Positions 5,992 through 39,078 of a stretch of 39,078 bases of DNA are shown here, one piece after another. The translations under genes and the position numbers were made by a program. Positions within the stretch are counted from its first letter, which is position 1. Each line of letters begins with the position of its first letter. The stretch comes from a virus. The stretch lies in UHGV virus genome UHGV-1859364; one strand, written 5' to 3'. The notes beneath the pieces were generated by a model. The model did no database searches, had not been told where the DNA came from, and saw only the letters and a program-made list of their open reading frames with translations.

Positions 5992-6458
5992 TCTCCCTTA
6001 TATGGCTCTGGTAGTGGCATCCAAGCAATAACACAATCTCCGTTCAATGGGGCATCTTCGATGCTTATCAATGCATTCACTTGTTCGTCACTATCTAAAT
6101 GCCATATTTTTTGTACCGCATCATAATTTGCATACATTACATATTCTTCATCGTACGGAGCATCGCATATATCATACGTTGATGTCGGACAATGGCTTCT
6201 CATTACACTGACAATGCATCTTGCCCAATATGAATCTCCTTTCGGTCTAGGTAATCTATCACTGCATGAAATCCACTCACCATGAAGATTGTTCGCTCTT
6301 ACCTTTTTCGATAATGTTTCGATTGTGTTAATGGCATCTCTAATATCTTTCGCCCATAAATCTTGCAAATTGCCGATATCCATATCAAGCTCTGGGTCTG
6401 TCTCAAGGCGTTCCGCTATGTTTGCAAGTAATTTCATCTGTTCACTTATCATGCTCAT
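5988..6458 (-). CDS. DUF551-like phage protein
   Basis: 156 aa. GEWISCSDRLP...WMPLPEPYKGE matches the W-I-S-x-x-D-R-L-P signature of DUF551. Confidence 0.55.
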   Translation of the reverse strand: MSMISEQMKLLANIAERLETDPELDMDIGNLQDLWAKDIRDAINTIETLSKKVRANNLHGEWISCSDRLPRPKGDSYWARCIVSVMRSHCPTSTYDICDAPYDEEYVMYANYDAVQKIWHLDSDEQVNALISIEDAPLNGDCVIAWMPLPEPYKGE

Positions 6459-8104: not shown

Positions 8105-8108
8105 CCAA

Positions 8109-8366
8109 TCACCACCAATCCTGACTTGCACTTGAATTACCCATGATTCCGTTACTCATTGCTGTTGTCTTGCCATTTGCTCCGTAAGCATATCTAAGTC
8201 CTTTATCTGCATTGATTCCTTGCCAGTGCATGTTGCCCTCATGCAAGACAATCAGGTCATTCATACTGTAGTCCTCTTTCGGATTCAGCTCTACATACTT
8301 TTCAGCACCTTTTTTCGTACCGTATCCGCATTTCTGCACGGTCTTTATAAATTCTTCTGCTGTCAT
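8109..8366 (-). CDS. Hypothetical protein
   Basis: 85-aa ORF with an ATG start. It lies immediately upstream of the methyltransferase. Confidence 0.45.
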   Translation of the reverse strand: MTAEEFIKTVQKCGYGTKKGAEKYVELNPKEDYSMNDLIVLHEGNMHWQGINADKGLRYAYGANGKTTAMSNGIMGNSSASQDWW

Positions 8367-17200: not shown

Positions 17201-17347
17201 ACTGGAAGCACACGCCAATGTGCTTATCGAATACCTCCGAAGAGATACACTTCAAATCCAATGAATATTGTATCATCTTCGGACAGCCACTGCAAGTGGA
17301 ACACACGTTCCTCGCTGGCTGTTATTTTTATACTAGGAGATGATAAT

Positions 17348-18463
17348 ATGGCTACAGCTAAAAAGTTACCTTCAGGATCTTGGAGGTGCTTAGTTTTTTC
17401 GCACTATGAAAACCTGTTCAATGAGGACGGAAGTCCTATGATTGACGAGAAGACCGGAAAGCAGAAGCGGAAAAGGATTTATGAATCGTTTACCAGTGAC
17501 TTACAGGGAAGACGTGGAAAGCGGGATGCAGAAGCTCAGGCGGCTCAGTTCCTTGCAGAGAAAGACCGGAAAAAACGCCCTGAGAACTGGACAGTGAAGG
17601 AAGCTTTTGAAAATTACATAAAGTTAAAGGATCATGTGCTGTCCGAGACTACTCTCCGTGGTTATGAGACGATCACCCGGAATCAGATCGGACAGATAGC
17701 AGATATCAGCCTCCGCAAGCTCTCGCAGGAAGACGTACAGAGCTGGATCAACATTCTGTCGGTAAAGTTATCGCCTAAGACCGTAAAGAACGCTTACGGG
17801 CTGTTTACAGCGGTCATGCGGATGTATCTGCCGGATATGCACTTCCATACCACTCTACCATCTGCAAAGACCTATGAGGGGTATGTGCCATCCGATCAGG
17901 ACATCACGGATCTGATCTGCTATATCCGGGGAACTGAACTGGAAAAAGCAGTGCTTCTCGCAGCGTTTGGAAGTCTCAGGCGTGGAGAAGTCTTCGGGCT
18001 GACGAAAGAGGATATCAAGGGGAACTCCATACGGATCAGAGAGACGAAAGTCCGGGGACGTAGTGGGATCATCAAAAAAGGTCCTAAGACACAGAGCAGC
18101 TACCGATACATTATCATGCCGGAATTTGTGATCCGAAAATTTGACGATATCGAAAGCGGTCCGCTTGTCAGGATGCACCCGGAAGATCTCTCTAAAAACT
18201 TTAAAAAAGTGCTTCGTTCTGCTGGGATTCCTGAATTTCGATACCATGATCTCAGACATTATACTGCATCCATTATGCACGCCCTGAACATTCCGGATCA
18301 GTACATCATGAAGCGTGGTGGATGGAAGTCTGACAGAGTCCTGAAAAGGGTATACCGTGGCACGATTGCACCGGAAGAAGAGAGATTTACAGACCGAATC
18401 AACGAGCATTTTACGGAAATGATGCAACACGCCATGCAACACGATAAGCGAAAAGCCTTATAA
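17348..18463 (+). CDS. int: Tyrosine integrase (phage integrase family)
   Basis: The C-terminal catalytic region HDLRHYTASIM...RGGWKSDRVLKRVYRG contains the R/H-x-x-R/Y tetrad. The start at 17348 (MATAKKL) is chosen for its AGGAGA RBS; the longer ORF from 17261 has none. Confidence 0.9.
   Translation: MATAKKLPSGSWRCLVFSHYENLFNEDGSPMIDEKTGKQKRKRIYESFTSDLQGRRGKRDAEAQAAQFLAEKDRKKRPENWTVKEAFENYIKLKDHVLSETTLRGYETITRNQIGQIADISLRKLSQEDVQSWINILSVKLSPKTVKNAYGLFTAVMRMYLPDMHFHTTLPSAKTYEGYVPSDQDITDLICYIRGTELEKAVLLAAFGSLRRGEVFGLTKEDIKGNSIRIRETKVRGRSGIIKKGPKTQSSYRYIIMPEFVIRKFDDIESGPLVRMHPEDLSKNFKKVLRSAGIPEFRYHDLRHYTASIMHALNIPDQYIMKRGGWKSDRVLKRVYRGTIAPEEERFTDRINEHFTEMMQHAMQHDKRKAL
18422..18443 (+). repeat. 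Arm-type direct repeats ATGCAACACG x2 (putative integrase P-arm sites)
   Basis: ATGCAACACGcc and ATGCAACACGat lie 12 bp apart within the int 3' end. Confidence 0.4.
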
Positions 18464-25342: not shown

Positions 25343-26124
25343 GCTGCTTCCCTCCGTTCCAGGAAGATATCCAAATCTATCCCATACGTTCCCGCCCAGT
25401 TCACCCGGATGAGACCGCTTGGGATCTTTTCAAAAATGGAATATTCATAACCTCGTTCATTAAACAGATTGGATACAGTTCCATTTGCCAGGTATTTATA
25501 TACTGTCTGCTCTGCGGATTCAATAATCATGTATTCATTCCGTTCCAGTGTGGTTCTGACTTCGTACGGGTATCCGTTGATTAATATCTTCGGATTCGTA
25601 CAAGGTCCATATACCGTCATCTTAAAATCTGATGCAGAGGGATGGTCAATTTTAAATTCGGCCGTCCCCGCCCGAACATCTGCGAAATCAAAAGGGAAAT
25701 CAAAGGGAAAATCCAATCCGCTTGCTGCTGTCAGCTGACTTTGCGGAAAAAGCTGCTGACTTACTACTGTCATCCATGACAAGGACGGAGCTGCAAAAGT
25801 AAGCTCCACTTCTGCCATATCGAACCCTTTCCAGTTCGACTTCTTTGATTTCTCTACATGGCAAGAGAGGAATGTACCGTTCACGCACAATCTTCCATGT
25901 ACTCCAAGATCTGCATCTACGGCAAGCACGCTGTACAGCTTTTCCATATTTTTCGCAAGACCTTCCCCGCTGTCGTATACGTCCACCTGCACCGTCTTCT
26001 GATATCCGCTTGCAGTCTCATCCCATTCGGAATCATACCAGTCTGCTTCTGCCGTATAATACGGATCAACAAGAAAATTCAGGATCACTCCTTTTGAATT
26101 TATGTAATACGCTTCTCTTATCAT
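25336..26124 (-). CDS. Distal tail protein (Dit-like)
   Basis: 262 aa lying directly downstream of the tape measure gene with an ATGA overlap. Confidence 0.5.
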   Translation of the reverse strand: MIREAYYINSKGVILNFLVDPYYTAEADWYDSEWDETASGYQKTVQVDVYDSGEGLAKNMEKLYSVLAVDADLGVHGRLCVNGTFLSCHVEKSKKSNWKGFDMAEVELTFAAPSLSWMTVVSQQLFPQSQLTAASGLDFPFDFPFDFADVRAGTAEFKIDHPSASDFKMTVYGPCTNPKILINGYPYEVRTTLERNEYMIIESAEQTVYKYLANGTVSNLFNERGYEYSIFEKIPSGLIRVNWAGTYGIDLDIFLERREAAW

Positions 26125-29100
26125 ATTTTCGGCACCGCTCCTTTCGGCAGTTCCCGGTCTAACCGGGTCGTACCCAGGTATACCGGCCTGCTCTGCATCT
26201 TCTTAACACCGGCAGCCGTTGCATTCCCGACTTTCGCTGCCAGTTTCGTCAAATCCTCGTCTGAAATCCTCATAGTACTCTGTACGCTCTGCTGATTTAT
26301 GATCTTTTCTGTACTCTGCAAGGCAAATGAGCTGGTGATCCTGTTTGTATTCACCGCCATCGCCTCCCGTACCCGGGTGGACAGATCTGCCATGTCCAGC
26401 GAGTTCAGTGCCGAACGTGCCATTCGTTCTGAAGCCTTTTTTACAGCCGGTATCTGATCGTCAATTCCAAGTGCGAATCCCCCACCAGAAAAACGCCCCG
26501 CTCCTCGCATTACTTTTGAGGGTGAATGAATCCCCAGTACGCTCTTGACTTTTTCATAAGCCGTACTTGCCATCTCTGCCGCTTTTGATGCAGCTTTTCC
26601 AACCCAGTCACCAATTCCACGGACAAATCCTGATCCGAAATTAGATCCTGTATCATACGAATTAATACTTCCTGCTCCGCTTTTTGCACTGGTAGCAAGG
26701 GATGTTCCTTTCGCCCTTGCATCCCCTGCCTTACTTCCAACAGCAGAAGAATACGCTGTTCCGAACGATTTTCCAGTACTTCCCGGATTCACCGATCCAG
26801 CTCCACGCTTCGCACTGTCTGCCAGTCCTTTTCCTCTTGTCAACAGCTTCCCGACAAAACTGCCGATCGCTGTATCGAAAAATCTTCCAAATGCACTACC
26901 GGTCGAGGTCGGGTCAACAGCCCCTGCTCCTCTTTTTGCAGCTTCTGCATTCGCTTTTCCCTGTTGTTCCGAAACTGACAGCTGTGATCCGATTCCTTCA
27001 TTAAAAGAAGTCATCAACCCTGATCCGATTTCTTTCGTATCTCCTACTGATCCCCGCATAGCATCAAGCAGCCGGGAGATCACGCCAGTACCGGAAGAAG
27101 TAAGTTCCTCCTGACCTTCGTTCAATCCTTCAACCGCTCCCGGCCAGACATACGAAAAGATTTCTTTCACCGCACGGGACGGACTGTGGACATCAAGAGT
27201 CGTGATCAGGCTTTGCAGGAATGCATCCGCACCTTGCTCTGCCGGATCAACCAGCGTTTCAAACCCTTCCAGTCCTTCCAAAGCTCCATACCACGCCTGT
27301 GACCACGTCTCTTTAGTTTTTTCGTCCAGTCCTGAAAATCCTTTCAGAAAGCTTTCCATTCCTGCCTGCGCCTCAGTGCTCAGCGTACCGGATATCTTTG
27401 CCTGTGCCATAGCCGCTACAAGTTTTGCAGAGCCATCCTTACCGGCATTTTTTAATATTTCCTTGATCTGATCTGCACCAGTTCCGACCTGATTCAGGGC
27501 AATCCCCATTGCCTCCGTCAAGCCATCTTTGGTCTGCTGGGTTAATTGCATTGCTCCATCTTTTTCAGCGGAAAAAATACTGGTAAGCTTATCTGTCATT
27601 GCACTGGCCTGCTCGATGGCTGCTTCTGATCCAATCTCCAAAGTAGTGTCAATTCCGCTCTGAATTTCTGCCAGTGCAGAGTTGATCGTATCAGTATTTC
27701 CACTCATTGCTGCCTCTGTCAGGCTACTGTAATCGGAGATGACTTTCTGATTATCCTGCATCGCCGCATTGGCAGCGTCAAAGTTTGCCTGCAATTCTTC
27801 CAGTCCACTACCTGCTTTTTCAAGCTTTTCTTTCAGTTCTCCGTACTTTTCAGTATTCCGCACAATAGCTTCGCCCTGGGCATCATACCCCATTACTACA
27901 GCATTTGCCGATTCTGCTTCAAGTTCCTTCTCAAGTTCTGCGATCTTGCTTTTTTTGCTACTAAGCTTTTCGTAAGCATCTGCCAGTTCAGCCGCCTTGT
28001 CTGCCTGCTCTTTCATTGCATCCGCATAGTCCGACTTCATGGAGTCAAGAACGGCTTCTGCTTTTTTTGCCGCAATCAGATCGTAGACAGATTTCTTCAA
28101 GTCGCTGTAGTTCTGAATCAGTCCATCGTTCAGGCTGATTTCTACACCTAACGCACTGGACAGCTCACCTGTGATATACGCTGCCATTGCCTCCTGTCCT
28201 GCCTGCACTTTTCCATTCGCATCAACAATCTTTTGCAGTTCTCCCCACAATGCTTCTGCATTGTCGATCTCAGATGTGGCTGCCTGAATATTTTTCTGCC
28301 TTGCCGCTGCCTTTTCGTTAATACTGTCAATTTCATCCTGTGCTGCCTGGATATTTTCCTTTTGTGCCTCCGTCAGCCGATCTGTTGATGCTGCTTCATC
28401 ATCCGTCAGCAGGATTGCTGTTCCGATACAGGCTGCCAGTGCCGCCCCTGCGGTAACAAGCAGACCGATTGGATTTGATGCCATAGCAGCGTTCAGGGCT
28501 GTCTGTGCTTTCGTCCACAGTCCGGTCAGGGCAGTCGTGACTCCGATCTGACCGCTATAGACTCCCCTCAGCGTTTCCCGGATCGTCAGACCGCCGTTAG
28601 ATGCTACAAGCTGTAAAGCATTTGCTTTTTCCATCGCAGTCAGCCTTGCCAGGGCTGCCGCATTCAGATTCGTCTGATTCTTGCTGACCTTGGTGGCTGT
28701 GCTATACAGCTTCAATGCTGTCGTAGCTCCAGCCACCAATGGAGCAATCACACCTAGATTCCCACTCAGCAGGTCGATGGCTTTTGTGACCGGTGGGAGT
28801 GCCGCTTTCGCAAGCGTTCCTGCCGCTTTGGTCAGATTCTTGAATACGGATACTGCTTTTTTTCCGGCTGATTTCAATCCACCTGAATTGAGTGACTCTG
28901 ACAAGGCCTCTACTGCATCCTGTGCCGGTTTCTTTAATTCTGCCGGCAGAAGGCTTGCAAGTCCTCCCGCTATTGATTCTGCCACTTCTGCTGCGGCTGT
29001 CAGAAGTCTTCCTTTATTTCCTGACACGCCGGAAATGAAAGATTCGATGAAATCAACCGCTGTATCCACCATTTCCGGTGCGTGGGATGCTGCATCCACG

Positions 29101-30263
29101 GCAAAATCTGCAAAGATGTTTCCGGCCTCTTTTACAGCCGCTTTCAGACCACCATTTTTAAAGGCGTCCGTCATATCGCTTACAGCCTGCGTGGCTTGCA
29201 CGGCTGTATTTTTCAGTGGCGTATCAAGAGATTCATAAATTTCAATGCCGAGACCCTCAAGACTGGATTTCAAAATCGTAACCGCACCTTCAAGGTTGTC
29301 CTGCATTGTCTCTGACATATTCGCAGCCGTTCCGTCAGCGTTCTTTATGGCAGATGCAAGCTTGTCAAAATCACCCTGCGATGCATTTACGATAGCCAGC
29401 AATCCTGACATTGCCTCCTGTCCACCTAAAGCGGCAGCCATTTGAGCTTTCTGATCTTGTGTGAGTCCGGAGAAGCCTTTTCTCAGATCAACCATGATCT
29501 CATTCAGAGACTTCATGGATCCGTCACTCTTTGTCAGAGATATTCCCAGGGCATCCATAGCCCCCTGGACTTCGTTGGTTGGCTTCGCCATTCGGGTAAA
29601 GATACTTCGCAAAGCAGTACCTGCCTGGCTTGCCTTAATTCCGGAGTTCGCCATCAGACCGATTGCAACTGCACAATCTTCTACACTATACCCTAACGCA
29701 CCGGCTACTGGTGCAACGTACTTAAACGTCTCTCCCATCATGCCTACGTTAGTGTTGGCGTTACTGGACGCTGCCGCAAGGACATTCGCAAAATGCGTAG
29801 AATCCGATGCAGACAGTCCAAACGCTGTCAGGGCGTCTGTAACGATGTCAGAAGTCGTTGCAAGATCTTCACCGGATGCTGCTGCGAGATCCATGATGCC
29901 TTCAATACCAGAAAGCATATCCTGTGTCTTCCATCCTGCCATAGCCATGTATTCCATAGCCTGGGCAGATTCGGAAGCACTGAACTTCGTCTTTGCCCCC
30001 ATTTCCTTTGCCTTGTCAGTCAGTTTCTGCAGTTCGTCTCCTGTAGCTCCTGATATGGCTGATACTTTTGACATCTCGGACTCAAAACTGACACCGACCT
30101 TTACAGCTGCCGCCGCTGCACCTCCAAGAGCAGTGGACACTGCACTCACTGTTGTTGCTACAGTTTTCAAGCCAGTTTTCGCAAGCTTTCCCATTTTGCT
30201 TAAATCTTTTTCAATACCGGATGTGTCCAGTCCAGTATCAATAATTACTTTTCCGTCTGCCAA
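26121..30263 (-). CDS. Tail tape measure protein
   Basis: 1380 aa, Ala/Gly/Ser-rich with long coiled-coil regions and a GxxxG-rich hydrophobic stretch. It lies downstream of the tail chaperones. Confidence 0.9.
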   Translation of the reverse strand: MADGKVIIDTGLDTSGIEKDLSKMGKLAKTGLKTVATTVSAVSTALGGAAAAAVKVGVSFESEMSKVSAISGATGDELQKLTDKAKEMGAKTKFSASESAQAMEYMAMAGWKTQDMLSGIEGIMDLAAASGEDLATTSDIVTDALTAFGLSASDSTHFANVLAAASSNANTNVGMMGETFKYVAPVAGALGYSVEDCAVAIGLMANSGIKASQAGTALRSIFTRMAKPTNEVQGAMDALGISLTKSDGSMKSLNEIMVDLRKGFSGLTQDQKAQMAAALGGQEAMSGLLAIVNASQGDFDKLASAIKNADGTAANMSETMQDNLEGAVTILKSSLEGLGIEIYESLDTPLKNTAVQATQAVSDMTDAFKNGGLKAAVKEAGNIFADFAVDAASHAPEMVDTAVDFIESFISGVSGNKGRLLTAAAEVAESIAGGLASLLPAELKKPAQDAVEALSESLNSGGLKSAGKKAVSVFKNLTKAAGTLAKAALPPVTKAIDLLSGNLGVIAPLVAGATTALKLYSTATKVSKNQTNLNAAALARLTAMEKANALQLVASNGGLTIRETLRGVYSGQIGVTTALTGLWTKAQTALNAAMASNPIGLLVTAGAALAACIGTAILLTDDEAASTDRLTEAQKENIQAAQDEIDSINEKAAARQKNIQAATSEIDNAEALWGELQKIVDANGKVQAGQEAMAAYITGELSSALGVEISLNDGLIQNYSDLKKSVYDLIAAKKAEAVLDSMKSDYADAMKEQADKAAELADAYEKLSSKKSKIAELEKELEAESANAVVMGYDAQGEAIVRNTEKYGELKEKLEKAGSGLEELQANFDAANAAMQDNQKVISDYSSLTEAAMSGNTDTINSALAEIQSGIDTTLEIGSEAAIEQASAMTDKLTSIFSAEKDGAMQLTQQTKDGLTEAMGIALNQVGTGADQIKEILKNAGKDGSAKLVAAMAQAKISGTLSTEAQAGMESFLKGFSGLDEKTKETWSQAWYGALEGLEGFETLVDPAEQGADAFLQSLITTLDVHSPSRAVKEIFSYVWPGAVEGLNEGQEELTSSGTGVISRLLDAMRGSVGDTKEIGSGLMTSFNEGIGSQLSVSEQQGKANAEAAKRGAGAVDPTSTGSAFGRFFDTAIGSFVGKLLTRGKGLADSAKRGAGSVNPGSTGKSFGTAYSSAVGSKAGDARAKGTSLATSAKSGAGSINSYDTGSNFGSGFVRGIGDWVGKAASKAAEMASTAYEKVKSVLGIHSPSKVMRGAGRFSGGGFALGIDDQIPAVKKASERMARSALNSLDMADLSTRVREAMAVNTNRITSSFALQSTEKIINQQSVQSTMRISDEDLTKLAAKVGNATAAGVKKMQSRPVYLGTTRLDRELPKGAVPKI

Positions 30264-30268
30264 TCATC

Positions 30269-30886
30269 TCACCATCCTTTTAGCAGCTCGCTTACATCTT
30301 CGCCCCGTTCCAGTGCCTCCTCCAAAGCTTTCAATTTCGCCTTATCCGGTGCTTTTTCTGTATCCAGTCCGTAATATTCCTGCATCGCCTGGTAGAATTT
30401 CTTTTGCTCCTTCGATAAACCTTTTGCCGACAGATCCAGTGTCCGGTACTCCATGATCTTCTGAAATCTTGTATCTCCTCCGAGATTTTCAAGTAAGATC
30501 ATAAATTTCCACCAGTGCATCTCCTCTGTCTGCAGGTCGATTCCGTACTGCTGGATAAATCCCGCATAGATCAGATCGGCATCTGCCTCAAAATCAAATG
30601 CCTGCTTGCTGTTGATCCCGGCGATCTTCCGCGGAAAATGTTTCCGTTCCGGCTCTCTCCCGCAAGAGAAAAACCACAGCATCTTGTCAAAATGTTCTTC
30701 TGTATACCAGGTGTACTGACCGTAAAAAATCCTGAGCATTCTCGCCATCTCGTCCTCAGTCAGCTCTCTGCCTGCATCCTGGAGGATTTTCTGACAACAC
30801 AAAACGGTGCGAAAATCCCAATGGATCGGACATTCCACACCGCTAATTGTCAGACTTACCGGAAAAGGCTCTGTAAGGGAACTCAT
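30269..30886 (-). CDS. Tail assembly chaperone (Gp15-like)
   Basis: 205 aa lying between the major tail protein/chaperone and the TMP. It has its own ATG and overlaps the upstream gene by 4 nt. Confidence 0.5.
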   Translation of the reverse strand: MSSLTEPFPVSLTISGVECPIHWDFRTVLCCQKILQDAGRELTEDEMARMLRIFYGQYTWYTEEHFDKMLWFFSCGREPERKHFPRKIAGINSKQAFDFEADADLIYAGFIQQYGIDLQTEEMHWWKFMILLENLGGDTRFQKIMEYRTLDLSAKGLSKEQKKFYQAMQEYYGLDTEKAPDKAKLKALEEALERGEDVSELLKGW

Positions 30887-31233
30887 TCAGCCCCTTTCAT
30901 TCCCAGTCGCTCTTTTACTGCTCTATACCTCTCACACTGTCGGATCTGTTCGTTAAGCAGTGCTTCATAAGCTTCCAGGCATAAGAGGTGATCGTGACCC
31001 GTTCCGCATACTTTTTCCCCTGTGCCTTCTCCGAAGGTTACATCAAAAAGGTGCTTGACCGTATCACACTGCTGTCTGATCGCATCCGGTTCCGTTCCTG
31101 TATCTCCAATCTTTGAAATTTCTTCCAGTTCTTTCAGATATGCCTGTTTACCTTCCTCAAAATCCGGGTCGAAAAATGAAAAATTTAATCTAACTCCGTT
31201 AATCTGCATTGTCTTTTTCCTCCATCTGTTCAT
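30883..31233 (-). CDS. Tail assembly chaperone (G-like)
   Basis: 116-aa acidic protein lying between the major tail protein and the Gp15-like gene. Confidence 0.45.
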   Translation of the reverse strand: MNRWRKKTMQINGVRLNFSFFDPDFEEGKQAYLKELEEISKIGDTGTEPDAIRQQCDTVKHLFDVTFGEGTGEKVCGTGHDHLLCLEAYEALLNEQIRQCERYRAVKERLGMKGAE

Positions 31234-31296
31234 ATAAATCTTTTTCCGCTTCGTCCGCTACAGCCTCACCAACTGAAGCATTATCAGTGAGGGAGA

Positions 31297-31827
31297 TTAT
31301 TCCCCCTCTGTAAATGCCTTGGTTGCTGTGTTGAACGTACCCTTTACCCAGTCAGTCTTGCCAAGCAGGTTGCCGGACCCCTGGATCTCACCGTCATTGT
31401 CCTTGAATTCTGAAATTTCAACCGCAACTTTTCTCCGCTTTGCCTCATAAGTTCCAGCTGATTCGCTTACCGGTTTGTCCAGGTATACCTTCACGTAAAA
31501 TGTATCAGCCTCCACCCCGGTCTTTTCGTTCTCGCCGATCTCCGAAATGTAAGCGATTGCCGGTTCACTCTGGATCAGATCAAACTCAAGTGGTGCTGTC
31601 CATTCATAACCGCCAATGCTCTGTGTTGCACTTTTCTGATTGACGTATCTCTTTGACGTAGTCTGTGCGGACGGTGAATCATCCAGCTGAGTCACGCCAA
31701 TTCCGAGGAGCTCATATTTCGGGGAATCAGATCCCCCTGTAACGTCAATGTAATCTGCACGCTGGTAACGCTGCGTTACACCGGTGTCTTTTGCTGCTTC
31801 AAAAATCTGTAAATTCATTCTTTTCAT
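31297..31827 (-). CDS. Major tail protein. The start is trimmed to MKRMNLQIFEAAKD.
   Basis: RBS GGAGGT lies 6 nt upstream of the ATG at 31827, and the longer ORF has no RBS. It shares the L27-like leader (NLQIFE) with the capsid and scaffold proteins. Confidence 0.6.
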   Translation of the reverse strand: MKRMNLQIFEAAKDTGVTQRYQRADYIDVTGGSDSPKYELLGIGVTQLDDSPSAQTTSKRYVNQKSATQSIGGYEWTAPLEFDLIQSEPAIAYISEIGENEKTGVEADTFYVKVYLDKPVSESAGTYEAKRRKVAVEISEFKDNDGEIQGSGNLLGKTDWVKGTFNTATKAFTEGE

Positions 31828-31831
31828 TGCC

Positions 31832-32260
31832 TTACCTCCGTTTGTAATATAAAAAGCGGCACTGAATGCGGTACTGGCATTTCGTGCCTTCGTTATCGTA
31901 TAAATAGCCGCCTGTCGTTGCCCGGACAGACTTGCTCGTGAGATTTCCCGACAGTGCCGGAAGTCTTCCCCGCTCCGTACATTCATCCAGCCAGTCAGAG
32001 AATTTTTCGTAAAATTCCGCTGTGTCCTTGTTGCTCTCTTCTCCGTACCATTCCCGGGAACAAAGAGAAAATACCATCTGTCGGATTGTATCTCCGTTCG
32101 TATACCGTTTGACAATCGGGTCTGCCGGAGTAAGTTCCAGGCTATACGCTGTTGCATCCTCTCCCAGCAGATCCACGTTCACGATCGGGAACATCTGTTC
32201 AAACTCTTCCAGGAACGGACAGCCTGCTATAAATTCAGCGACTTTGGTTGCTACACTCAT
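31832..32260 (-). CDS. Tail terminator / neck protein
   Basis: Start MSVATKV with RBS GGAGGG 8 nt upstream, and ATGA overlap with the upstream gene. It lies immediately before the major tail protein. Confidence 0.45.
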   Translation of the reverse strand: MSVATKVAEFIAGCPFLEEFEQMFPIVNVDLLGEDATAYSLELTPADPIVKRYTNGDTIRQMVFSLCSREWYGEESNKDTAEFYEKFSDWLDECTERGRLPALSGNLTSKSVRATTGGYLYDNEGTKCQYRIQCRFLYYKRR

Positions 32261-32586
32261 CCTGCTTTCCCTCCACAAAAACTGGCTACTGCCTTTACAA
32301 TCTCCGGCCCTCTGTCTGCCCACATCCGTTCTGCCCAGTGCGGACCCCGAAGACCGTCTCCTTTGTGTTCATAATACTGCCGCCTTGCATAAGGTGCATT
32401 GTATGTGATCGTGGAAATTGCTTCTGTGGCATCCGTCTTCAATCGTCCAGTCAGCCGTGGAACATAAGGATCGGACAGCCGTCTGACCTCACTTGTAAAA
32501 AATCTCTGTCCTTTTCCATTCTTGTTCAGGCTTCTCCTGAGCAGGATCTGATCTTTCGGATCCAACTGCATTCTGATTACCATCAC
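32257..32586 (-). CDS. Neck / tail-completion protein
   Basis: 109 aa in the head-tail joining cluster. Confidence 0.4.
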   Translation of the reverse strand: MMVIRMQLDPKDQILLRRSLNKNGKGQRFFTSEVRRLSDPYVPRLTGRLKTDATEAISTITYNAPYARRQYYEHKGDGLRGPHWAERMWADRGPEIVKAVASFCGGKAG

Positions 32587-32987
32587 GCACCTCCACTGAT
32601 TCTGATATGCGGGGATGATCCGACGAAGTTCTCGGAATGGCTCTTCACCACCCCGACTACTCCGCTATACTGCTTTTTCAGGTCATCAATCCCTGTGACT
32701 TCTCCACCGCACCATTCTCCCTGGATAAAGAGATCCCCATTCTGAACAGTCCAGCAGGTCCCTTTCTGCCCTGTCGCAAATTGATCCACAGTTTTCCAGT
32801 CTGCACACTGATCAAATGGGATGCGGATCATATGCTCGTCCGAGCTGATCAGGCCACCCTGTGATGGCGTAGTCTTCCTGCTGACGTGATACCATGCCCA
32901 GTCAATCCGGTGCGGCAGATACACTATCTTTTTCTGCTCCTTATCCGGGTAACGGTTAAAGAGCGTGATCACTGCATTTGTAAGCAT
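32583..32987 (-). CDS. Head closure / head-tail joining protein
   Basis: The start at 32987 (MLTNAVITLFNRYPDKEQ) has RBS GGAAGGTGGG. The longer ORF extends to 33044. Confidence 0.4.
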   Translation of the reverse strand: MLTNAVITLFNRYPDKEQKKIVYLPHRIDWAWYHVSRKTTPSQGGLISSDEHMIRIPFDQCADWKTVDQFATGQKGTCWTVQNGDLFIQGEWCGGEVTGIDDLKKQYSGVVGVVKSHSENFVGSSPHIRISGGA

Positions 32988-33369
32988 CACAATATCCCAC
33001 CTTCCTGGACAGCCATCCCAGCGGAAGCAGATAGGTCCGTGCAACTTCGTAAGCTTTGCGGGATGCGACCGCTTCTGCTGTCTCTCCGTCCACCTGCTCG
33101 TTTACATAAGTCACACTGTATCCGTCCGTATTTTCCGACTTTACAGATCCATTTCCCTGCTGATTTTTCAGGTCGCAAGAATAATAAATCTCTGCAACTG
33201 CACATACAGCATCTTTTACGGTATCGTTTTCACAAGCAAAAATATCTCCGTGCATATAAGTCAGATGCCTTATATAGGCTTCTGCTTTTTTTTCTGCTTT
33301 TGCAAATTTTTCAAGTGGAATCAGCTCACCACCGTATTCAGACAAATAATAGAAATGATCCGCATACAT
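32956..33369 (-). CDS. Head-tail connector (gp6-like adaptor)
   Basis: The start at 33369 (MYADHFYYLSEYGGELIPLEKFAKAEKKAEAYIRHL) has RBS AGGAAGGAG. It lies immediately after the major capsid gene. Confidence 0.5.
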   Translation of the reverse strand: MYADHFYYLSEYGGELIPLEKFAKAEKKAEAYIRHLTYMHGDIFACENDTVKDAVCAVAEIYYSCDLKNQQGNGSVKSENTDGYSVTYVNEQVDGETAEAVASRKAYEVARTYLLPLGWLSRKVGYCDAYKCSDHAL

Positions 33370-33386
33370 ATTGTCTTGCTCCTTCC

Positions 33387-34367
33387 TTATTCTCCCGCTT
33401 TCAGGATCGCAAACGGGCATCTCTTGGTCTTATCTTTTGCAAGAGCATTGATTGGATTCGGGATTTCCCATCCAAGACGCATCACCGCACGAAGAGCAAT
33501 CATATCATTCTGCATCAGGTTGTATGCGATAGTTCCATCGGTGTTCTGAATCACGCCTTCCGTGAATAACTTGAATGTAATATCCTGTCTGATGGAATAT
33601 ACAAGCTGAGAGAAGTCTCCTGAAATCATCAGTGCCTTTGATTTGTCAAACGCTCCGTTGTTTGGGAAATTCATCGGAGAGCCATCTAAAGCATACTGCG
33701 TTGTTCCCTGCAGATCCTGTTTGAACAGCGGATCACCATTCGCATTCTTCAATCCCCTGAGCTTTGCCCTCATGGAGATATCTGCCATGTGACCATTCAC
33801 AAAGTAGCCGGATCCCTCGACTTTTGCGATGACACCATCTTCTGCCATAATCTTGTCATAAAGGCTGTCAGATGCTCCGAGTGTTACGACTGCACTCGCC
33901 TTTGTTGCAGTTGCAACAACATCTTCTCTCCATGTTGACGGCTTATTTTCTCCAAAAAGCACCGCTCCATCAATGACTTTTCCAAATGCTTCTGTTACTC
34001 TTGGCTTTACTTCTGACCAAATATCATATTCTGAATCATCCAATACGGCTTCTGGAATCGGAACAATTACCGCAATTTCTTCTGCGGTGATAAATTTCTT
34101 GTCCCACTCCTGCTTTGCTGTCTTTTTCTGACCGTTATCTCCGTTTACGAAATACGCAATCGGTAACATATCCAGAACTGGCATTTTATACTGTTTACTT
34201 GTCATATTCGCCAGCTTACGTCCTCTTGACAGAACTGCTGACTGTGCGATCGTTCCCTGGATGATCTCGTTGGATTCCTGAATCGGAATTAAAGCCTCTG
34301 CCCCGCTACGATCAATGATATTTACGTCTGTTTCAAATAATTTTAAATTCATTCTGGTTCTGTTCAT
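33387..34367 (-). CDS. Major capsid protein (HK97-fold, SPP1/80alpha-like)
   Basis: 326 aa following the scaffold gene. The N-terminus MNRTRMNLKLFETD carries the L27-like leader. Confidence 0.85.
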   Translation of the reverse strand: MNRTRMNLKLFETDVNIIDRSGAEALIPIQESNEIIQGTIAQSAVLSRGRKLANMTSKQYKMPVLDMLPIAYFVNGDNGQKKTAKQEWDKKFITAEEIAVIVPIPEAVLDDSEYDIWSEVKPRVTEAFGKVIDGAVLFGENKPSTWREDVVATATKASAVVTLGASDSLYDKIMAEDGVIAKVEGSGYFVNGHMADISMRAKLRGLKNANGDPLFKQDLQGTTQYALDGSPMNFPNNGAFDKSKALMISGDFSQLVYSIRQDITFKLFTEGVIQNTDGTIAYNLMQNDMIALRAVMRLGWEIPNPINALAKDKTKRCPFAILKAGE

Positions 34368-34379
34368 CTTCTACCTCCA

Positions 34380-34985
34380 TCACTTTCTTGCTGCAGCACG
34401 GATACGTTCATTGATAGAAGCATTCATGCTTCCACCAGCTCCCTCCGAAGAGCTTCCTGAAGACGTAGACACCCGATACGTGCCACTGCCTGTATATTTC
34501 GGGTTTTCTTTCAAATACTGTTCTGCAGCTTTTTCAAATGTTGTCTTGTCGTTTACAAGTTTCGATACCTTGAACATGACATAATCAAGATCCTCTGTCT
34601 TCACACCTTTACCTGACAGAAATTTCTCATTTTTCATCTGCTGAACTTCCTTCAAAGCGTCATCACGTTCTTTCTGCAGCTTTGCCGTGTCCGGCTGATT
34701 TGCTGCACGTTCTGCCTTGAATCTTGTGATTGCTTCTGTGACTTCTCCCTCTGTCATTCCCTGACCACGGAAAAAGCTTGCAAGAGCTGCACGTTCCGAC
34801 TTGCTTGCCCTGGCACTTGCAATTTCTTCCAGCTGTTCATAGGTATAAGTTCCGGAATTGGAAGCTCCGGATGTGCTTCCAGCGGATCCATTACCGCTGT
34901 TCCCAGTCCCGGCATTTCCACTCTGTCCACCAGAGCCAGCTCCGCTGCCGTCCTCGAAAAGCTGTAACATCATTCTTTTTCTCAT
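34380..34985 (-). CDS. Scaffolding protein
   Basis: 201 aa with an N-terminal leader MRKRMMLQLFEDG. A Gly/Ser-rich linker is followed by a charged coiled-coil region. It lies immediately upstream of the capsid gene. Confidence 0.7.
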   Translation of the reverse strand: MRKRMMLQLFEDGSGAGSGGQSGNAGTGNSGNGSAGSTSGASNSGTYTYEQLEEIASARASKSERAALASFFRGQGMTEGEVTEAITRFKAERAANQPDTAKLQKERDDALKEVQQMKNEKFLSGKGVKTEDLDYVMFKVSKLVNDKTTFEKAAEQYLKENPKYTGSGTYRVSTSSGSSSEGAGGSMNASINERIRAAARK

Positions 34986-35042
34986 TTCTACCTCCGTTTA
35001 TGCTTCGTTGAGCTCCCGAGCTTTTAATGCCTTCACGTTTTG

Positions 35043-35070
35043 GGCAAAAGAAAAACACCCCTCAGGGTGT
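35043..35070 (-). terminator. Hairpin plus U-tract after the Prp gene (partial terminator or attenuator within the late operon)
   Basis: ACACCC-tga-GGGTGT (35055-35070) is followed on the minus strand by U-rich TTTTTCTTTTGCCC. Confidence 0.45.
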
Positions 35071-35073
35071 CTC

Positions 35074-35361
35074 CTACAAAAATGTTATACAATTATATTC
35101 CCGGTTGATATCTGTCAATCCGAGAAACCACGAATCTAGCAGCAACTTCCCTCTGTCAGAAAGCCGCTCCCATTCGATCACGGTTCTTCCGCTCCCGGTA
35201 TCTGCCCTGATCCGGTCACCTGTCAGATCATTCAGCGAATTGATCAGGTTGCAGGTGAGAGCGGATACCGCTGCACATGCCCGGTCAATACCATCTGACC
35301 CTTTTCGGCAGGCATGGCCTTTTAATGCAAGCATGTCCTCTCGGACTTTCACCTCAATCAA
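35074..35361 (-). CDS. prp: Prp-like cysteine protease (DUF464; ribosomal-protein L27 N-terminal processing peptidase homolog)
   Basis: MIEVKVRED...KGHACRKGSDGIDRACAAVSALTCNLINSL matches the Prp/YsxB signature GHA...G.DIVCAAVSAL, including the His-Cys dyad. Confidence 0.8.
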   Translation of the reverse strand: MIEVKVREDMLALKGHACRKGSDGIDRACAAVSALTCNLINSLNDLTGDRIRADTGSGRTVIEWERLSDRGKLLLDSWFLGLTDINREYNCITFL

Positions 35362-35424
35362 ACAATCACTCCTTTACATTTCCGGTCATTCCCCGCCGGT
35401 GGGAGATATCGGATCACCGCCTTT

Positions 35425-35874
35425 CTATGGATAGTCGTTTGCCATCATTTTCTCGAGATACCATTTTTTTAATTGTTTTTCATTGTCAATCTGTCGCTCT
35501 ATCATTTCGATTTCGTTATCGATCATTCTGATCTGTTCTACAATGTATCGCTGGTCTTTCTCGTTGTCATGCCAGTCTAAAATAAAATTTACGAGAGTAC
35601 TAAACTGCAGATTGATTGTAGTCCTATATCTTCTTAAAAAATCTGGAAATACTCTTTTGATAGCTATGTAAAGGTAATCACAATCCACTTCTTTTTTCGG
35701 TTCAAACACTGCAAATCGGCTGTCTATGTTCCCAGCTTCCTTGATCTGTCCGACGAACTCATCGACTGCACTCAATTTAATAAAGCATGTACCGGCTTTA
35801 TATTTCTTTCCTGATACAGCTCTCTCAACAATGCACACTTCACTGATATTTCTTTTTCTGCATCTTAATTTCAT
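35425..35874 (-). CDS. hsdS: Type I restriction-modification specificity subunit, half-size (single-TRD HsdS)
   Basis: 149 aa with one TRD (ISEVCIVERA..G..YKAG.., YLYIAI) and the conserved C-terminal helix TTINLQFSTL...IVEQIRMIDNEIEMIERQIDNEKQLKKWYLEKMMA. It overlaps the hsdM stop. Confidence 0.7.
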   Translation of the reverse strand: MKLRCRKRNISEVCIVERAVSGKKYKAGTCFIKLSAVDEFVGQIKEAGNIDSRFAVFEPKKEVDCDYLYIAIKRVFPDFLRRYRTTINLQFSTLVNFILDWHDNEKDQRYIVEQIRMIDNEIEMIERQIDNEKQLKKWYLEKMMANDYP

Positions 35875-37097
35875 GTCCAGCTCAACTCCAACTGATCATA
35901 TTGTTTCTTTTCTGTTTTCCTTCTTTGCTTTGGATTTAAAATGATCTTATGCATCTCAATGGCATTCATATCCTCAGCGTTTCCAGTTAAATCCTGCAGC
36001 ATTTTATATAGCTCGTCTTTAACTTTTTTCTCTTCTTCGTCAATTTCTCTAAGATTCGTCAAAATCTTTCGTACATCTGGCAAAGGTTCATGCACGAAGC
36101 TGTCTACATACCTTGGTATGTTCAAATTGAAATCATTCTTTTCAATTTCCGAATAACTCGTAATATGCGAGTATCTCTCCACTTCTTGTCTGTTTAAAAA
36201 AGTATCTACAACTTTACCGGTCTGCTGTTCTGTCATATCGTTTTGTGCAGATTTTTTTATGAAATCTTTGCTCGCATCTATAAAAAGTATGTCCGGAGAA
36301 TCATATTGCAAAATTAAAACGAAAACCGGAATACTTGTATTTAAGAACAACTTATCCGGAAGTCCTATTACCGCATTGATTAAGCGCTCTTGCACTAACC
36401 ATTTTCGGATATCTCCTTCACCTGCCCCACGGAATAAAACACCATGCGGAAGAATTGCGATCAGTCGCCCGCCTCTGTTTAGATGCTCTAATCCACGTAA
36501 TATGAATCCATAATCTGCTTTACTTTTCGGTATTTTATGTCCCATGATTCTCATCTCATCCGCCTCCGGAAATTTCATGGAATACGGTGGATTCATGATT
36601 ACATTATCAAAACATCCTGCTTCTTGTCGTTCCTGTAAGGATACGATACTGATACCGCCCCGCTCTTCAAGTAAGTAGGTTTCCTGTACTGTATTCCTCA
36701 GACAATCCGCCTTGCTTATCGTGCCTTGCATACCGTTCATACATGCGTCCAGAATGGCAAATGGAATCGTCCTTTCAGAAAATTCCTGTTCGTTAATTTC
36801 AATCCCACGTTTTAATGCAGCCATTTTACTCAGAGCTCCTGTTCCGGAACACATATCCAAACAAGTACCGTCAATCATTAGATCGGCTACAATAGAGCAG
36901 ATGCAATCGGGTGTAAAATCTTGCTTTAAACTTTTTCTATCTCCCTGCTCTTCCTGGAACATATCCCGAATATCGCAAGAAATTTGTTCTTTAATCTGCG
37001 TGATAGTCTTTTCTGCATCCGGTGATAATAACATCTCCATTATTTTGTCCGGAAGCCGGTAAGATTCTTTTACGTCAAAAAACTCCTGAAGTGTCAT
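35871..37097 (-). CDS. hsdM: N6-adenine DNA methyltransferase, Type I HsdM-like
   Basis: Motif I DMCSGTGAL, motif IV VIMNPPYS and the HsdM-like FTPDCICSIVADLM are present. The start at 37097 (MTLQEFF) has RBS GGAGAGG 7 nt upstream. No hsdR lies nearby. Confidence 0.8.
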   Translation of the reverse strand: MTLQEFFDVKESYRLPDKIMEMLLSPDAEKTITQIKEQISCDIRDMFQEEQGDRKSLKQDFTPDCICSIVADLMIDGTCLDMCSGTGALSKMAALKRGIEINEQEFSERTIPFAILDACMNGMQGTISKADCLRNTVQETYLLEERGGISIVSLQERQEAGCFDNVIMNPPYSMKFPEADEMRIMGHKIPKSKADYGFILRGLEHLNRGGRLIAILPHGVLFRGAGEGDIRKWLVQERLINAVIGLPDKLFLNTSIPVFVLILQYDSPDILFIDASKDFIKKSAQNDMTEQQTGKVVDTFLNRQEVERYSHITSYSEIEKNDFNLNIPRYVDSFVHEPLPDVRKILTNLREIDEEEKKVKDELYKMLQDLTGNAEDMNAIEMHKIILNPKQRRKTEKKQYDQLELSWT

Positions 37098-37164
37098 ACC
37101 ACAACCTCTCCTCGCCTTAAAAATGGGTACAAAAATACCACTCACTCTCTCGAATGGGTGGTAT

Positions 37165-37422
37165 CTATTCAATTTGTTTCATTTCATCTTCTATTTCTTC
37201 TCTTTTCCAACCTTCCTCTGAGAGAATATCTAAGATTTCTTCCGGCTCACACAATATCTCTTCCAATTTCCAAATTCTTTCACGCAAGTGTGTTCTTCTG
37301 ACGGCAAATTCTATTTCTTCATCAGAATCCCCTAGCCTTCTAAAAACATCTTTCATTTCCTCATCTTCAATTTCCTGAAGTTTTTTATCGATATCAGGTG
37401 TATCTGGGTCAAACATTGTCAT
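37165..37422 (-). CDS. Highly acidic small protein (candidate DNA-mimic / anti-restriction or packaged protein)
   Basis: 85 aa with more than 35% Asp+Glu (EIEDEEMKD...SDEEIEF...EEILCEPEEILDILSEEGWKREEIEDEMKQIE). Its ATG overlaps the MuF stop (TAATG), with RBS GGAGGG 6 nt upstream. Confidence 0.5.
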   Translation of the reverse strand: MTMFDPDTPDIDKKLQEIEDEEMKDVFRRLGDSDEEIEFAVRRTHLRERIWKLEEILCEPEEILDILSEEGWKREEIEDEMKQIE

Positions 37423-39078
37423 TATAATCCCTCCATGATTTCTTCGAGTATTTCACCAAAGATTCTTGCTGCTTCTCGTGGTTTTTTACTAGTCATATAT
37501 TCAGAAAAACATTCCGCAAAGAACTCTCGCTCATTTTTGTAAGCGTATTCTGAAATATGCTTTGTGATGAATTCCTTTTTAGAAAAATCTAACGCATCGT
37601 TCAGTTCTCGTCCTTTGTAGCCCATTCTAGTCCAGTCTGCACGCTCCGCACGTGTATAATCAAAATATCCTAATCTTTGTAAGACTTCTCTCCTAACTGC
37701 TACGCTCGTCCTTGTTACACCATATTTTTCTATCTTTCCTCCATATATACCTTTCCATGTAAGGTAACCATCTAACTGATGTCCCATTTCATGAACGATT
37801 ATACTGTCGGCGGTAGTTCCAAGTGGAGAAAATCCAATTTTTATATAATGCTCATATTTTTTCTTTAACTTTTCGTAATCCGAAAAATAGGAACTAAGTT
37901 TAATAACACCATGCATAGAACTGCTTGAGGCAATCGACTTCAAATCTGAATCATATATGATTTTATTTGTATATCCTTTGAGCTGCGGAAATTTGTCAAA
38001 TACTTTCTTAATTCCATTATATACCGATTTTCTTGATTTTTCATCAACTTTACTGAAATCAATTTTATCCTTACCGATACCCATTACTTTTGATAATTTT
38101 GACTTTTCAAACAAGTTATCTGTACTGGAGGCTTTTATAACCATTTTTCTGGATATTTTTCCAGGTGCAACCCTGCCTTTCATATCCAAATAAATTCTTT
38201 CACGTTCCTGTTTAAGTCCCATTTTCTTCGAGAACCTTGCATACTCATCTAACTGTCCTTGGTACTTACATCGAGCTAACATAACATCATCCGGATCAGC
38301 ACCGCATTTTTGCAATAGCTGCACCTTTTCACGCTGTGCCCGCATAGCAGTTTCCATTTGACGCTGCCGTTGTTTTGCTTCGTAAAGAGTGTATTCTTTA
38401 CCACGGAACTCGGTCGGCTCGCTTTCTTTCCGATTCTGTTCGTCTAGCCAGTCATCCGTATAAGCTCGTACCGATACACCGGGAACAAAAGGGAAGTAAG
38501 TATGGTAGCAGTTTGCTCCACATAGTCCGGTTACTGTACCGAGTCCACAGACATCATACAATTGCTGTTGACTCCACACTCTGCCCTGCCATATCGTATG
38601 CGTTGGTCTCGCCCCTGCGTGCCATTCCACTTCAAAATATTCCGTACCGAGCTTTTCAGCATTATATTCCGCAATCTTCCCAGAAAGCTGCGTCAGTCCG
38701 GTCATGACAGCCCGTCTTGCTGCGACCTCGATTCGATTTGCATACCCCGATGAATATTCTATCTGCCGAAGTCCGCTATTCGTGAGCTGAGTGACTACCC
38801 GCCGGAGAACTGTATTATAATCAAATGCTCCTGTGACAATGTCCATGCAGGCATTATCGAGATACCCACTGTATACCTGTGACAATGGAGTTAATACCTT
38901 TCTGCCACCGTAATCCAAATAAAAGCCTAGAGATCTTGTAATATTTTCCAAGTCCTCAAGGCTTTGCTTTTTGATAGCTGATGTCACCTGTATCAGATGT
39001 TCATTTTCTTCAAAAGGTATGTATTCCGCATTGATCTGTTCATAGAGGTCCTTGTTCCTGACGTATTCCCAGTCGATC
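37422..39078 (-). CDS. Minor head protein, SPP1 gp7 / Mu F-like with a C-terminal HExxH metallopeptidase-like domain. This is the 3' part of the gene that starts at 242 and wraps across the junction.
   Basis: The reading frame is open to the window edge and is in frame with 242..1; the joined gene is 1899 nt (632 aa). The Mu F core is ARPTHTIWQGRVW...GANCYHTYFP. The C-terminal ~300 aa contain IIVHEMGHQL and the downstream EREFFAECFSEYM, an HExxH...E zinc-peptidase signature. Confidence 0.8.
   Translation of the reverse strand, partial: IDWEYVRNKDLYEQINAEYIPFEENEHLIQVTSAIKKQSLEDLENITRSLGFYLDYGGRKVLTPLSQVYSGYLDNACMDIVTGAFDYNTVLRRVVTQLTNSGLRQIEYSSGYANRIEVAARRAVMTGLTQLSGKIAEYNAEKLGTEYFEVEWHAGARPTHTIWQGRVWSQQQLYDVCGLGTVTGLCGANCYHTYFPFVPGVSVRAYTDDWLDEQNRKESEPTEFRGKEYTLYEAKQRQRQMETAMRAQREKVQLLQKCGADPDDVMLARCKYQGQLDEYARFSKKMGLKQERERIYLDMKGRVAPGKISRKMVIKASSTDNLFEKSKLSKVMGIGKDKIDFSKVDEKSRKSVYNGIKKVFDKFPQLKGYTNKIIYDSDLKSIASSSSMHGVIKLSSYFSDYEKLKKKYEHYIKIGFSPLGTTADSIIVHEMGHQLDGYLTWKGIYGGKIEKYGVTRTSVAVRREVLQRLGYFDYTRAERADWTRMGYKGRELNDALDFSKKEFITKHISEYAYKNEREFFAECFSEYMTSKKPREAARIFGEILEEIMEGL

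Follow-up and report, generated by a model that had tools for sequence, protein, structure and literature searches.

The window analyzed here, the whole 39,078-bp stretch of viral DNA UHGV-1859364, is the circularly permuted genome of a temperate siphophage. On its minus strand lies a gene for a member of the Prp family, cysteine proteases known for trimming ribosomal protein L27, and three virion proteins of the same phage, the head scaffolding protein, the major capsid protein and the tail tube (major tail) protein, each begin with a short leader that resembles the one Prp removes from L27. We argue below that the phage enzyme probably removes all three leaders. Across related phages, protease and leaders are evolutionarily coupled.

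The protease gene (35074–35361, minus strand) encodes 95 amino acids from a TTG start, with AAGGAG upstream. It carries the Prp signature GHACRKGSDGIDRACAAVSAL, as the original prediction had claimed, and matches Peptidase_Prp (PF04327) over residues 1–90 with an E value of 9.3e-13 (48.7 bits versus a cut-off of 27); phrog_4478, annotated as 'peptidase', matches with an E value of 5e-24. The predicted catalytic residues are His16 (codon 35314–35316) and Cys29 (codon 35275–35277), both on the minus strand, and Gly15, Asp26 and Ser33 are conserved as well. When the protein is aligned by phmmer with Staphylococcus aureus Prp (4PEO/7KLD), G15-H16 falls on G21-H22, D26 on D31, C29 on C34 and S33 on S38. 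All five columns are invariant across 37 phage homologues, and the GHA...D..CA motif is retained in 113 of the 120 closest Prp homologues. An AlphaFold2 (AF2) model built with the 37 homologues reached a predicted local distance difference test score (pLDDT) of 91.2 and a predicted template modeling score of 0.82, with the lowest confidence in the loop that is flexible in crystal structures. A Foldseek search of the PDB returned 14 matches with E ≤ 0.001, every one of them a Prp structure (7KLD, 7JVS, 2G0J, 2IDL, 4PEO, 1S12), with template modeling (TM) scores of up to 0.84; the best match was 7KLD_B (TM 0.83). By sequence and modeled fold, the 95-aa protein is a Prp-family protease.

The claim that the phage encodes its own Prp also stands, as the gene lies in the head module, unlike the chromosomal Prp gene of L093, a metagenome-assembled genome of a sheep-gut Lachnospiraceae. 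(Sequences used for comparison are given L numbers.) In L093, the gene for Prp (5941–6300, 110 aa) is directly followed by that for L27, which starts MMNLNLQFFAHKKG (MMNLNLQFF↓AHKKG, the arrow marking the cut) and provides the host-side reference for the motif. This contrast, together with the head-module context, led us to reject the idea that the 95-aa open reading frame (ORF) is a host ribosomal Prp on a chromosomal window. The phage protein is ~40% identical to the Lachnospiraceae chromosomal enzyme, with an isoelectric point of 5.7 versus 4.3. At least 325 IMG/VR stretches encode a Prp relative. Labels such as 'YsxB-like protein [Caudoviricetes sp.]' and 'peptidase' are attached to relatives in public databases, and this Prp-like phage gene family is thus already catalogued.

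The three leader-bearing proteins are encoded downstream, all on the minus strand. The scaffolding protein (201 aa, 34380–34985; phrog_2303, E 4e-41) lies between Prp and the capsid gene and has a Gly/Ser-rich stretch after its leader. The major capsid protein (326 aa, 33387–34367) has the HK97 fold (PF05065, E 4.6e-28; TIGR01554, E 1.3e-24). The tail tube protein (176 aa, 31297–31827) is encoded by the third gene upstream of the tape measure gene. The leaders and their contexts are MRKRMMLQLF-EDG in the scaffold (10 codons, 34956–34985, MRKRMMLQLFEDG), MNRTRMNLKLF-ETD in the capsid (11 codons, 34335–34367, MNRTRMNLKLFETD) and MKRMNLQIF-EAA in the tail tube (9 codons, 31801–31827, MKRMNLQIFEAA). 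A GGAGG ribosome-binding site precedes the scaffold and capsid genes.

The leaders had been described as near-identical. We translated the 39 kb in six frames and looked for the strict motif [MNL]L[QK][LIFHMV]F[EAS]. Only three matches were found, each within 11 residues of the start of the scaffold, capsid or tail tube protein, compared to a mean of 0.195 and a maximum of 2 in 200 mononucleotide shuffles. Counting residues outward from the predicted cut, with P1 the last residue removed and P1' the first retained, all three proteins have the features of an L27-like propeptide: Leu at P4, Gln, Lys or Arg at P3 and Phe at P1, within ~15 residues of the start. Comparison with the host L27 N-terminus, which the original prediction had called for, shows the leader core MNLQxF to be identical to that of Lachnospiraceae L27 (L093; Table 2 of PMC9405229). 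Across relatives, P4 Leu is encoded by five codons (TTA, TTG, CTT, CTC and CTG) and P1 Phe by both TTT and TTC. That these residues are kept through synonymous codons indicates selection on the peptide, not on DNA or RNA.

The tail gene starts at ATG 31827, preceded by ACGGAGGTAAGGCA, which supplies a GGAGG site. The coordinates in the original prediction are right, and all four ORFs lie on the minus strand; the start of the mechanical tail ORF (31297–32157) does not hold. We rejected the upstream ATG at 32157 because ATG 31827 has the GGAGG site and is backed by independent calls. The exact 176-aa product was called independently in 664 blocks of a public assembly collection, on contigs of up to 129 kb, which marks this as a common prophage gene in human-gut metagenomes.

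The identification of the 176-aa protein as the major tail (tube) protein, put forward originally without database searches, is settled by homology and canonical gene position. In a phmmer search, the protein matched PDB 11ok_A, 'Phage tail tube protein' (12 chains), with an E value of 1.2e-36, and profile A4 matched with an E value of 1.8e-42. The gene order is that expected of a tail module: tail completion, tail tube, DUF6673, Gp15, tape measure. Window residues 16–175 align with chain residues 2–155 of 11ok, so the solved protein begins where the conserved body begins; residues 1–15, extra relative to 11ok, are made up of the 9-residue leader and a 6-residue variable linker (EAAKDT). A match to phrog_3099, listed as of unknown function, begins at residue 13. 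Direct Pfam and NCBIfam scans gave no match to the window tail protein. More distant tail relatives touch the lmo2291 tube model weakly, and hhalign of A4 versus an lmo2291-type pair gave a probability of 78%, which is suggestive only. An AF2 model of the tail protein was discarded (pLDDT 39.4); it was based on a shallow alignment of 19 sequences, members of which are 70–78% identical to the window protein.

Characterized Prp enzymes cut directly after Phe, as F↓A both in L27 and in the scaffold and capsid proteins of phage 80alpha (PMC5744158, PMC9405229), and P1 Phe is required for Prp binding (PMC5744158; bioRxiv 10.1101/2025.08.01.668195). Since known Prp cuts after Phe, the expected cuts in the window phage are LQLF↓EDG in the scaffold (F10↓E11), LKLF↓ETD in the capsid (F11↓E12) and LQIF↓EAA in the tail tube (F9↓E10). 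The original prediction had put the cut after Glu, at odds with the known specificity (PMC5744158, PMC9405229), and had anticipated a loss of ~11–13 residues. From an F↓E cut, we would instead expect removal of 10, 11 and 9 residues from the scaffold, capsid and tail tube, respectively, with products starting at Glu11 (EDGSG...), Glu12 (ETDVN...) and Glu10 (EAAKD...). The predicted mature masses are 20,069 Da for the scaffold, 34,537 Da for the capsid and 18,242 Da for the tail tube; the computed uncut masses (minus Met) are 35,943 Da for the capsid and 19,404 Da for the tail tube. Leaderless homologues support this register. Once its Met is removed, the leaderless homologue P0094 (SETTNTG-V) equals the predicted mature tail tube protein (EAAKDTG-V) in length and lines up with it in register, and the capsids of FP_Lugh and Hain-Saunders-2022a, two phages that lack Prp, begin at most a few residues away from where the mature capsid N-terminus is predicted.

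Comparative evidence is the strongest part of the case. Searched by tblastn, the capsid protein matches 704 phage records, 112 of them staphylococcal. Among IMG/VR loci with a gene for a Prp relative (39–100% identical to that of the window), 53 were non-redundant, and 51 of these have leaders on both scaffold and capsid (a raw count, uncorrected for phylogeny, in a set biased by construction); the two exceptions are read as failures in picking the capsid start. The scaffold homologue carries a leader in every Prp-encoding relative examined. Acutalibacter phage Fontainebleau and Dorea phage DO134P1 have Prp and leaders on scaffold, capsid and tail tube, and Faecalibacterium phage FP_Lugh and Clostridioides difficile phage Hain-Saunders-2022a, with capsids 52–54% identical, have neither a Prp gene nor leaders. 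A second survey was anchored on the capsid, and hence independent of Prp; it covered non-redundant FP_Lugh-like capsid loci whose upstream sequence was long enough for a judgment. Both Prp and leader were absent in 34 of these loci and both were present in three, counting L217, whose MNLQKF↓A was missed by the regular expression and read by eye. One locus (L238) has a leader and no Prp, and no locus has Prp and lacks the leader; again the counts are raw.

The single discordant locus merits a note of its own. In L238 (IMGVR_UViG_3300011706_000002), the capsid start near 5001 reads MSNMILKLNLQHF↓ASN, which matches the core of the 80alpha capsid leader, LKLNLQHF↓ASN. This phage probably depends on the Prp of its host.

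On the tail tube protein, the leader behaves as a present-or-absent module (alignments A2 and A4). Nearly all of the 120 closest homologues of the window tail tube have it, the commonest version being MKMNLQFF↓AE, exactly the host L27 motif. Every leader-bearing tail lineage with readable context encodes Prp (window, Fontainebleau, L094, L251 and L253/L254), and the leaderless members of the family (P0094 in L257, and those of phiCD38-2, BG3P and Hain-Saunders) come from phages that lack Prp. Most telling are L251, L253 and L254, which have a different head module in which scaffold and capsid are leaderless, making the tail tube (leaders MKQKMYLRLF↓EE and MKKMNLHLF↓ET) the sole tagged protein in the locus. 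These three encode a 90-aa Prp with a short loop of ~5 residues between His and Cys (GHAGDPVVCHGISAIS; L251 1134–1406, L253 1154–1426, L254 1153–1425), resembling in this respect the 'non-L27-cleaving' type of Thermotoga maritima (PMC9405229). Other Prp-encoding phages bear leaders on tail tubes of the TP901-1 family (TIGR02126) and the lmo2291 family (NF047353), always on the product of the third gene before the tape measure gene. As judged from these sequences, the tag has moved repeatedly onto tail tube proteins of three families, sometimes onto nothing else. A tagged major tail protein is therefore less unusual than was first supposed; moreover, the motif had already been noted in phage phi13 (PMC5744158).

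The residue after the predicted cut shows a further pattern. The three window proteins all have Glu at this position, and many relatives have D, E, Q or T. P1' differs from phage to phage, but in concert among the proteins of any one phage: E/E/E in the window, D/D/D in Fontainebleau, A/A/A in L094, and T/T in L156 and L163. Scaffold and capsid agree in P1' class in 25 of 29 Prp clusters (permutation p < 1e-4, shared ancestry uncorrected). Residues other than Ala (D, E, T, Q) were seen only in phages with their own Prp; host L27, 80alpha and L238 have Ala. This pattern fits a phage enzyme with its own preference at P1'. By-eye comparison revealed no single Prp residue that tracks acidic versus Ala P1'. 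Arg27, in the sequence DRAC, was considered as a determinant and rejected, as L150, L151 and Fontainebleau combine acidic P1' with D/N-I-V-C.

How might such a system work? We envision that a captured and subsequently diverged copy of a bacterial Prp occupies the slot between the minor head and scaffold genes, which in many phages houses a prohead protease. Scaffold, capsid and tail tube would be made as precursors with N-terminal propeptides of 9–11 residues that mimic host L27, basic residues being followed by M-(N/M)-L-(Q/K)-x-F. The phage Prp, a Cys-His protease and probably a dimer like the cellular enzyme, would bind the propeptide and cut after Phe, yielding mature proteins that would start with Glu and match in length the natural N-termini of leaderless homologues. 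It presumably acts in the cytoplasm; a tail protein as substrate implies that Prp is not confined to the procapsid. The most likely purpose would be to keep self-assembling proteins from assembling or misfolding too early, as has been argued for the 80alpha scaffold leader, which is needed for productive assembly, cut or uncut (PMC5744158). The leader probably holds the precursors in a chaperoned or non-polymerizing state, and on the tube protein it might block the N-terminal region until tail assembly. The core of the original prediction, a phage Prp with three predicted substrates that bear an L27-like leader, came through each of the computational tests, on the family and fold of the protease, on the tail tube identity and on the co-occurrence of gene and leaders. 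Taking the sequence comparisons together, we think it probable that all three proteins are cleaved at F↓E, with the phage Prp as the main actor.

A number of points weigh against this. We infer cleavage throughout, in the window phage and in every relative, and the co-occurrence counts carry the lack of phylogenetic correction and the built-in bias given with them above. The best NCBIfam Prp equivalog, NF011122, gives the phage protein only 33.6 bits versus a cut-off of 166. A score so far below the equivalog cut-off means that the phage Prp is not an orthologue of the ribosomal enzyme; from its sequence, and with its gene in a head module and not in an rplU-prp-rpmA operon, it is best placed in a diverged phage subfamily, distinct from the housekeeping orthologue. 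Nor is the Ala (or Ser) P1' of characterized substrates matched by the Glu found here, which weakens the idea of identical specificity but not the idea that the enzyme works like cellular Prp. In many close relatives that encode Prp, the tail tube is a more distantly related member of the family that lacks a leader and has no room for one upstream, and hence the fold does not need the tail leader. Phage 80alpha stays viable without cleavage of its capsid and scaffold proteins (PMC5744158), so the leader may have a key function other than being cut. Finally, host Prp is present too, and logic does not strictly require a phage copy.

This last point underlies the alternative that processing falls to the host's chromosomal enzyme, as it does in 80alpha, leaving the phage copy redundant, a supplement to dosage or directed at another target such as host L27. 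As a supplement, it would prevent the essential host enzyme from being drawn away from L27 by virion precursors, which number in the hundreds per particle. All Firmicutes-type hosts encode Prp with L27 (PMC9405229; L093), 80alpha (PMC5744158) and L238 carry leaders in the absence of a phage Prp, and the MNLQxF core is shared with Lachnospiraceae L27. However, in Clostridia-type phages the gain and loss of leaders closely tracks the phage gene, although every host has Prp; P1' residues D, E, T and Q occur only with phage Prp and vary in concert with phage lineage; and the combination of a short-loop Prp with a tail-only leader in L251/L253 would make little sense if the phage enzyme played no part. 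We thus consider processing by the host enzyme unlikely. The same tail-only loci bear on another alternative, that the tail leader, and possibly the others, is a non-cleaved tag for assembly or chaperone recruitment, or a remnant of recombination, with only the head proteins, or none, being trimmed. In its favor, the 80alpha scaffold leader is essential for assembly and its cleavage is not (PMC5744158), and tail tube homologues work without a leader. Yet L251/L253 retain the Prp gene though only the tail tube is tagged, the P6–P1 pattern including P1 Phe is kept across three unrelated tail-tube families, and the homologous tail tube of known structure begins immediately behind the leader-plus-linker region, all of which make an uncleaved tag quite improbable. 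The leader-coding stretches are also A/T-rich and lie just after strong ribosome-binding sites, as might be expected if the similarity arose by chance or reflected a nucleotide-level element, such as a translation-initiation or regulatory RNA signal at late genes. Against this stand three strict-motif matches versus 0.2 expected, all at N-termini, the five codons used for P4 Leu and two for P1 Phe, the equality of the motif with the L27 propeptide, and the fact that its presence tracks the protease gene. The synonymous-codon pattern and the co-occurrence effectively refute this explanation, to which we assign almost no probability.

Several known systems invite comparison with the proposed processing by phage Prp. 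Bacterial Prp (YsxB/DUF464, MEROPS C108) shares the fold, the Cys-His dyad, the long flexible loop (Gly15–Asp26 here) and the recognition motif; the phage protein differs in falling below equivalog cut-offs, in being less acidic and in having virion proteins as its predicted substrates. Classical prohead proteases (HK97 gp4 / herpesvirus-assemblin fold, ClpP-like) are encoded between portal and capsid genes. These enzymes are enclosed in the procapsid and cleave off long delta or scaffold domains, sparing tail proteins. Phage Prp shares with them the genomic slot and a general role in trimming head precursors; it differs in its unrelated fold and chemistry, in removing (by prediction) only 9–11 residues, and in that it may act on a tail protein. 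The capsid protease of Streptococcus phage Cp-1 is the other member of MEROPS clan CR (PMC9405229). Like phage Prp, it is a phage-encoded cysteine protease of that clan, and it removes an N-terminal extension from the capsid, as phage Prp is predicted to do; in contrast, it belongs to another family, removes ~40 residues, and no L27-like motif has been reported for it.

The closest parallel is 80alpha, with the same protease family, an L27-like ...NLQxF propeptide and the same two head substrates, scaffold (gp46) and capsid (gp47) (PMC5744158); the window capsid family also extends to the 112 staphylococcal records mentioned above. The window phage differs in encoding its own protease, in having Glu rather than Ala at P1' and in tagging the tail tube as a third protein, and cleavage is experimentally established in 80alpha and predicted here. 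For phi13, a single sentence in Kizziah et al. 2017 remarks that the major tail protein carries a Prp motif (PMC5744158). As in the window phage, this is an L27-like N-terminal motif on a tail tube protein, and the remark came without cleavage data. To our knowledge, phi13 has no Prp of its own. Across 8 million papers searched, we found none on a phage-encoded Prp or on a Prp-cleaved tail protein beyond the phi13 remark, an earlier mention being possible in Wall et al. 2015, reportedly the founding paper on the processing of 80alpha scaffold and capsid by host Prp. Prp processing of phage scaffold and capsid, the phi13 remark and the database annotation of Prp-like phage genes are thus already known. 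What is apparently new is the tight coupling of a phage Prp to tagged substrates, the tag on three tail-tube families, the tail-only lineages, and acidic or Thr P1' residues.

Research on Prp has dealt with it as an essential protease of ribosome maturation and a target for narrow-spectrum antibiotics, and what has linked it to phages so far is a handful of staphylococcal ones that make use of the enzyme of their host. The present data show that very common human-gut prophages carry their own Prp plus matching tags. If the tags are indeed removed, tail assembly would gain a new step, in which the tube protein loses its propeptide, phages would offer natural short protease–tag pairs with differing P1' residues, possibly useful as orthogonal cleavage tools, and there might be a reservoir of mobile Prp activity relevant to Prp-inhibitor strategies. 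If cleavage does not occur, the finding shrinks to an annotation curiosity. A more speculative extension, possible but on balance doubtful, is that protease and tags form private pairs. The window Prp would then prefer acidic P1', and the host F↓A enzyme would process these leaders poorly; virion maturation would be uncoupled from the essential processing of L27, with no competition between them, and removal of the tail tag would serve as a hitherto unrecognized checkpoint that licenses tube polymerization. The clearest case of such a checkpoint would be L251/L253, where a minimal short-loop Prp would exist solely for the tail tube. If pairs of this kind exist, a prophage Prp could back up L27 processing in lysogens and so undermine Prp-inhibitor antibiotics. 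An unrelated mobile-element protease, Rrp, gives such L27 back-up in Streptococcus pneumoniae TIGR4 (bioRxiv 10.64898/2026.08.10.744006).

The surrounding genome is that of a phage of a gut Lachnospiraceae-type host. GenBank phages gave no near-identity DNA match to window positions 31000–36000, and hence the phage is not a deposited one; its relatives at the protein level are Fontainebleau and DO134P1. From the minor head gene to the tape measure gene, every gene lies on the minus strand, and the order of transcription is minor head, 85-aa ORF, N6 methylase, 149-aa ORF, Prp, scaffold, capsid, joining genes, tail tube. In relatives, the order is portal, minor head, small ORF, Prp, scaffold, capsid. 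The minor head protein, of the SPP1 gp7/MuF-like type, is encoded upstream of the protease (37422–38987, minus; PF06152, E 7e-76). Four head-tail joining genes occupy 31832–33420 (minus), among them that for tail completion (31832–32323, minus; phrog_3266). Two chaperone-like genes (30883–31233 and 30269–30886, minus) correspond to DUF6673 and Phage_Gp15 (PF20378, PF06854). Elsewhere in the genome are genes for an SPP1-type portal (244–1659), a C5 cytosine DNA methylase (6494–8131, minus), a DUF927/Cch-HTH primase-helicase-like replication protein (9123–10970, minus) and a tyrosine integrase (17261–18463, plus).

The tape measure gene (26121–30263, minus; PF10145, E 1.8e-61) anchors the tail module. 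Tape measure proteins are proteolytically processed in some phages. That of the window contains a loose Prp-like motif, ALKLY↓S, at residue ~517 (28715 region), and an unrelated PQLKVF↓T site lies inside those of some relatives, L022 among them; the positions are not homologous between the window and its relatives, and we treat these motifs as probable chance occurrences. KYLQIF↓NN in large terminase genes was likewise rejected as a leader, since it is a conserved internal motif.

The stretch that separates Prp from the minor head gene is a variable site of insertion. In the window (35425–37422, minus), it holds a gene for an N6-adenine DNA methylase (35871–37172, minus; PF02384, E 1e-49), which gives the phage two DNA methylases, C5 cytosine and N6-adenine, as well as the 149-aa (35425–35874, minus) and 85-aa (37165–37422, minus) ORFs. 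The corresponding spot contains a Tad2-like (anti-Thoeris family) gene in L251 (182–1137), a YjcQ-like gene in L253 (458–1071) and only a 77-aa ORF in L094. The minor head protein itself is matched by PF06152 over residues 2–252 and continues in a C-terminal extension with an HEMGH zinc-metallopeptidase motif and with similarity to the anthrax lethal factor domain just short of the threshold (PF07737, E 6.7e-6, 26.4 versus 27.4 bits). In the relative L253, the same protein instead bears an Ntox50 toxin domain. This variation looks like the polymorphic toxin cargo known for MuF-type proteins. Lastly, L094 and L095 (1–1691 in each) encode a group II intron reverse transcriptase (RVT_1 + GIIM, 460 aa) directly upstream of a 116-aa Terminase_3C fragment, suggesting that a group II intron interrupts the large terminase gene of this related phage.

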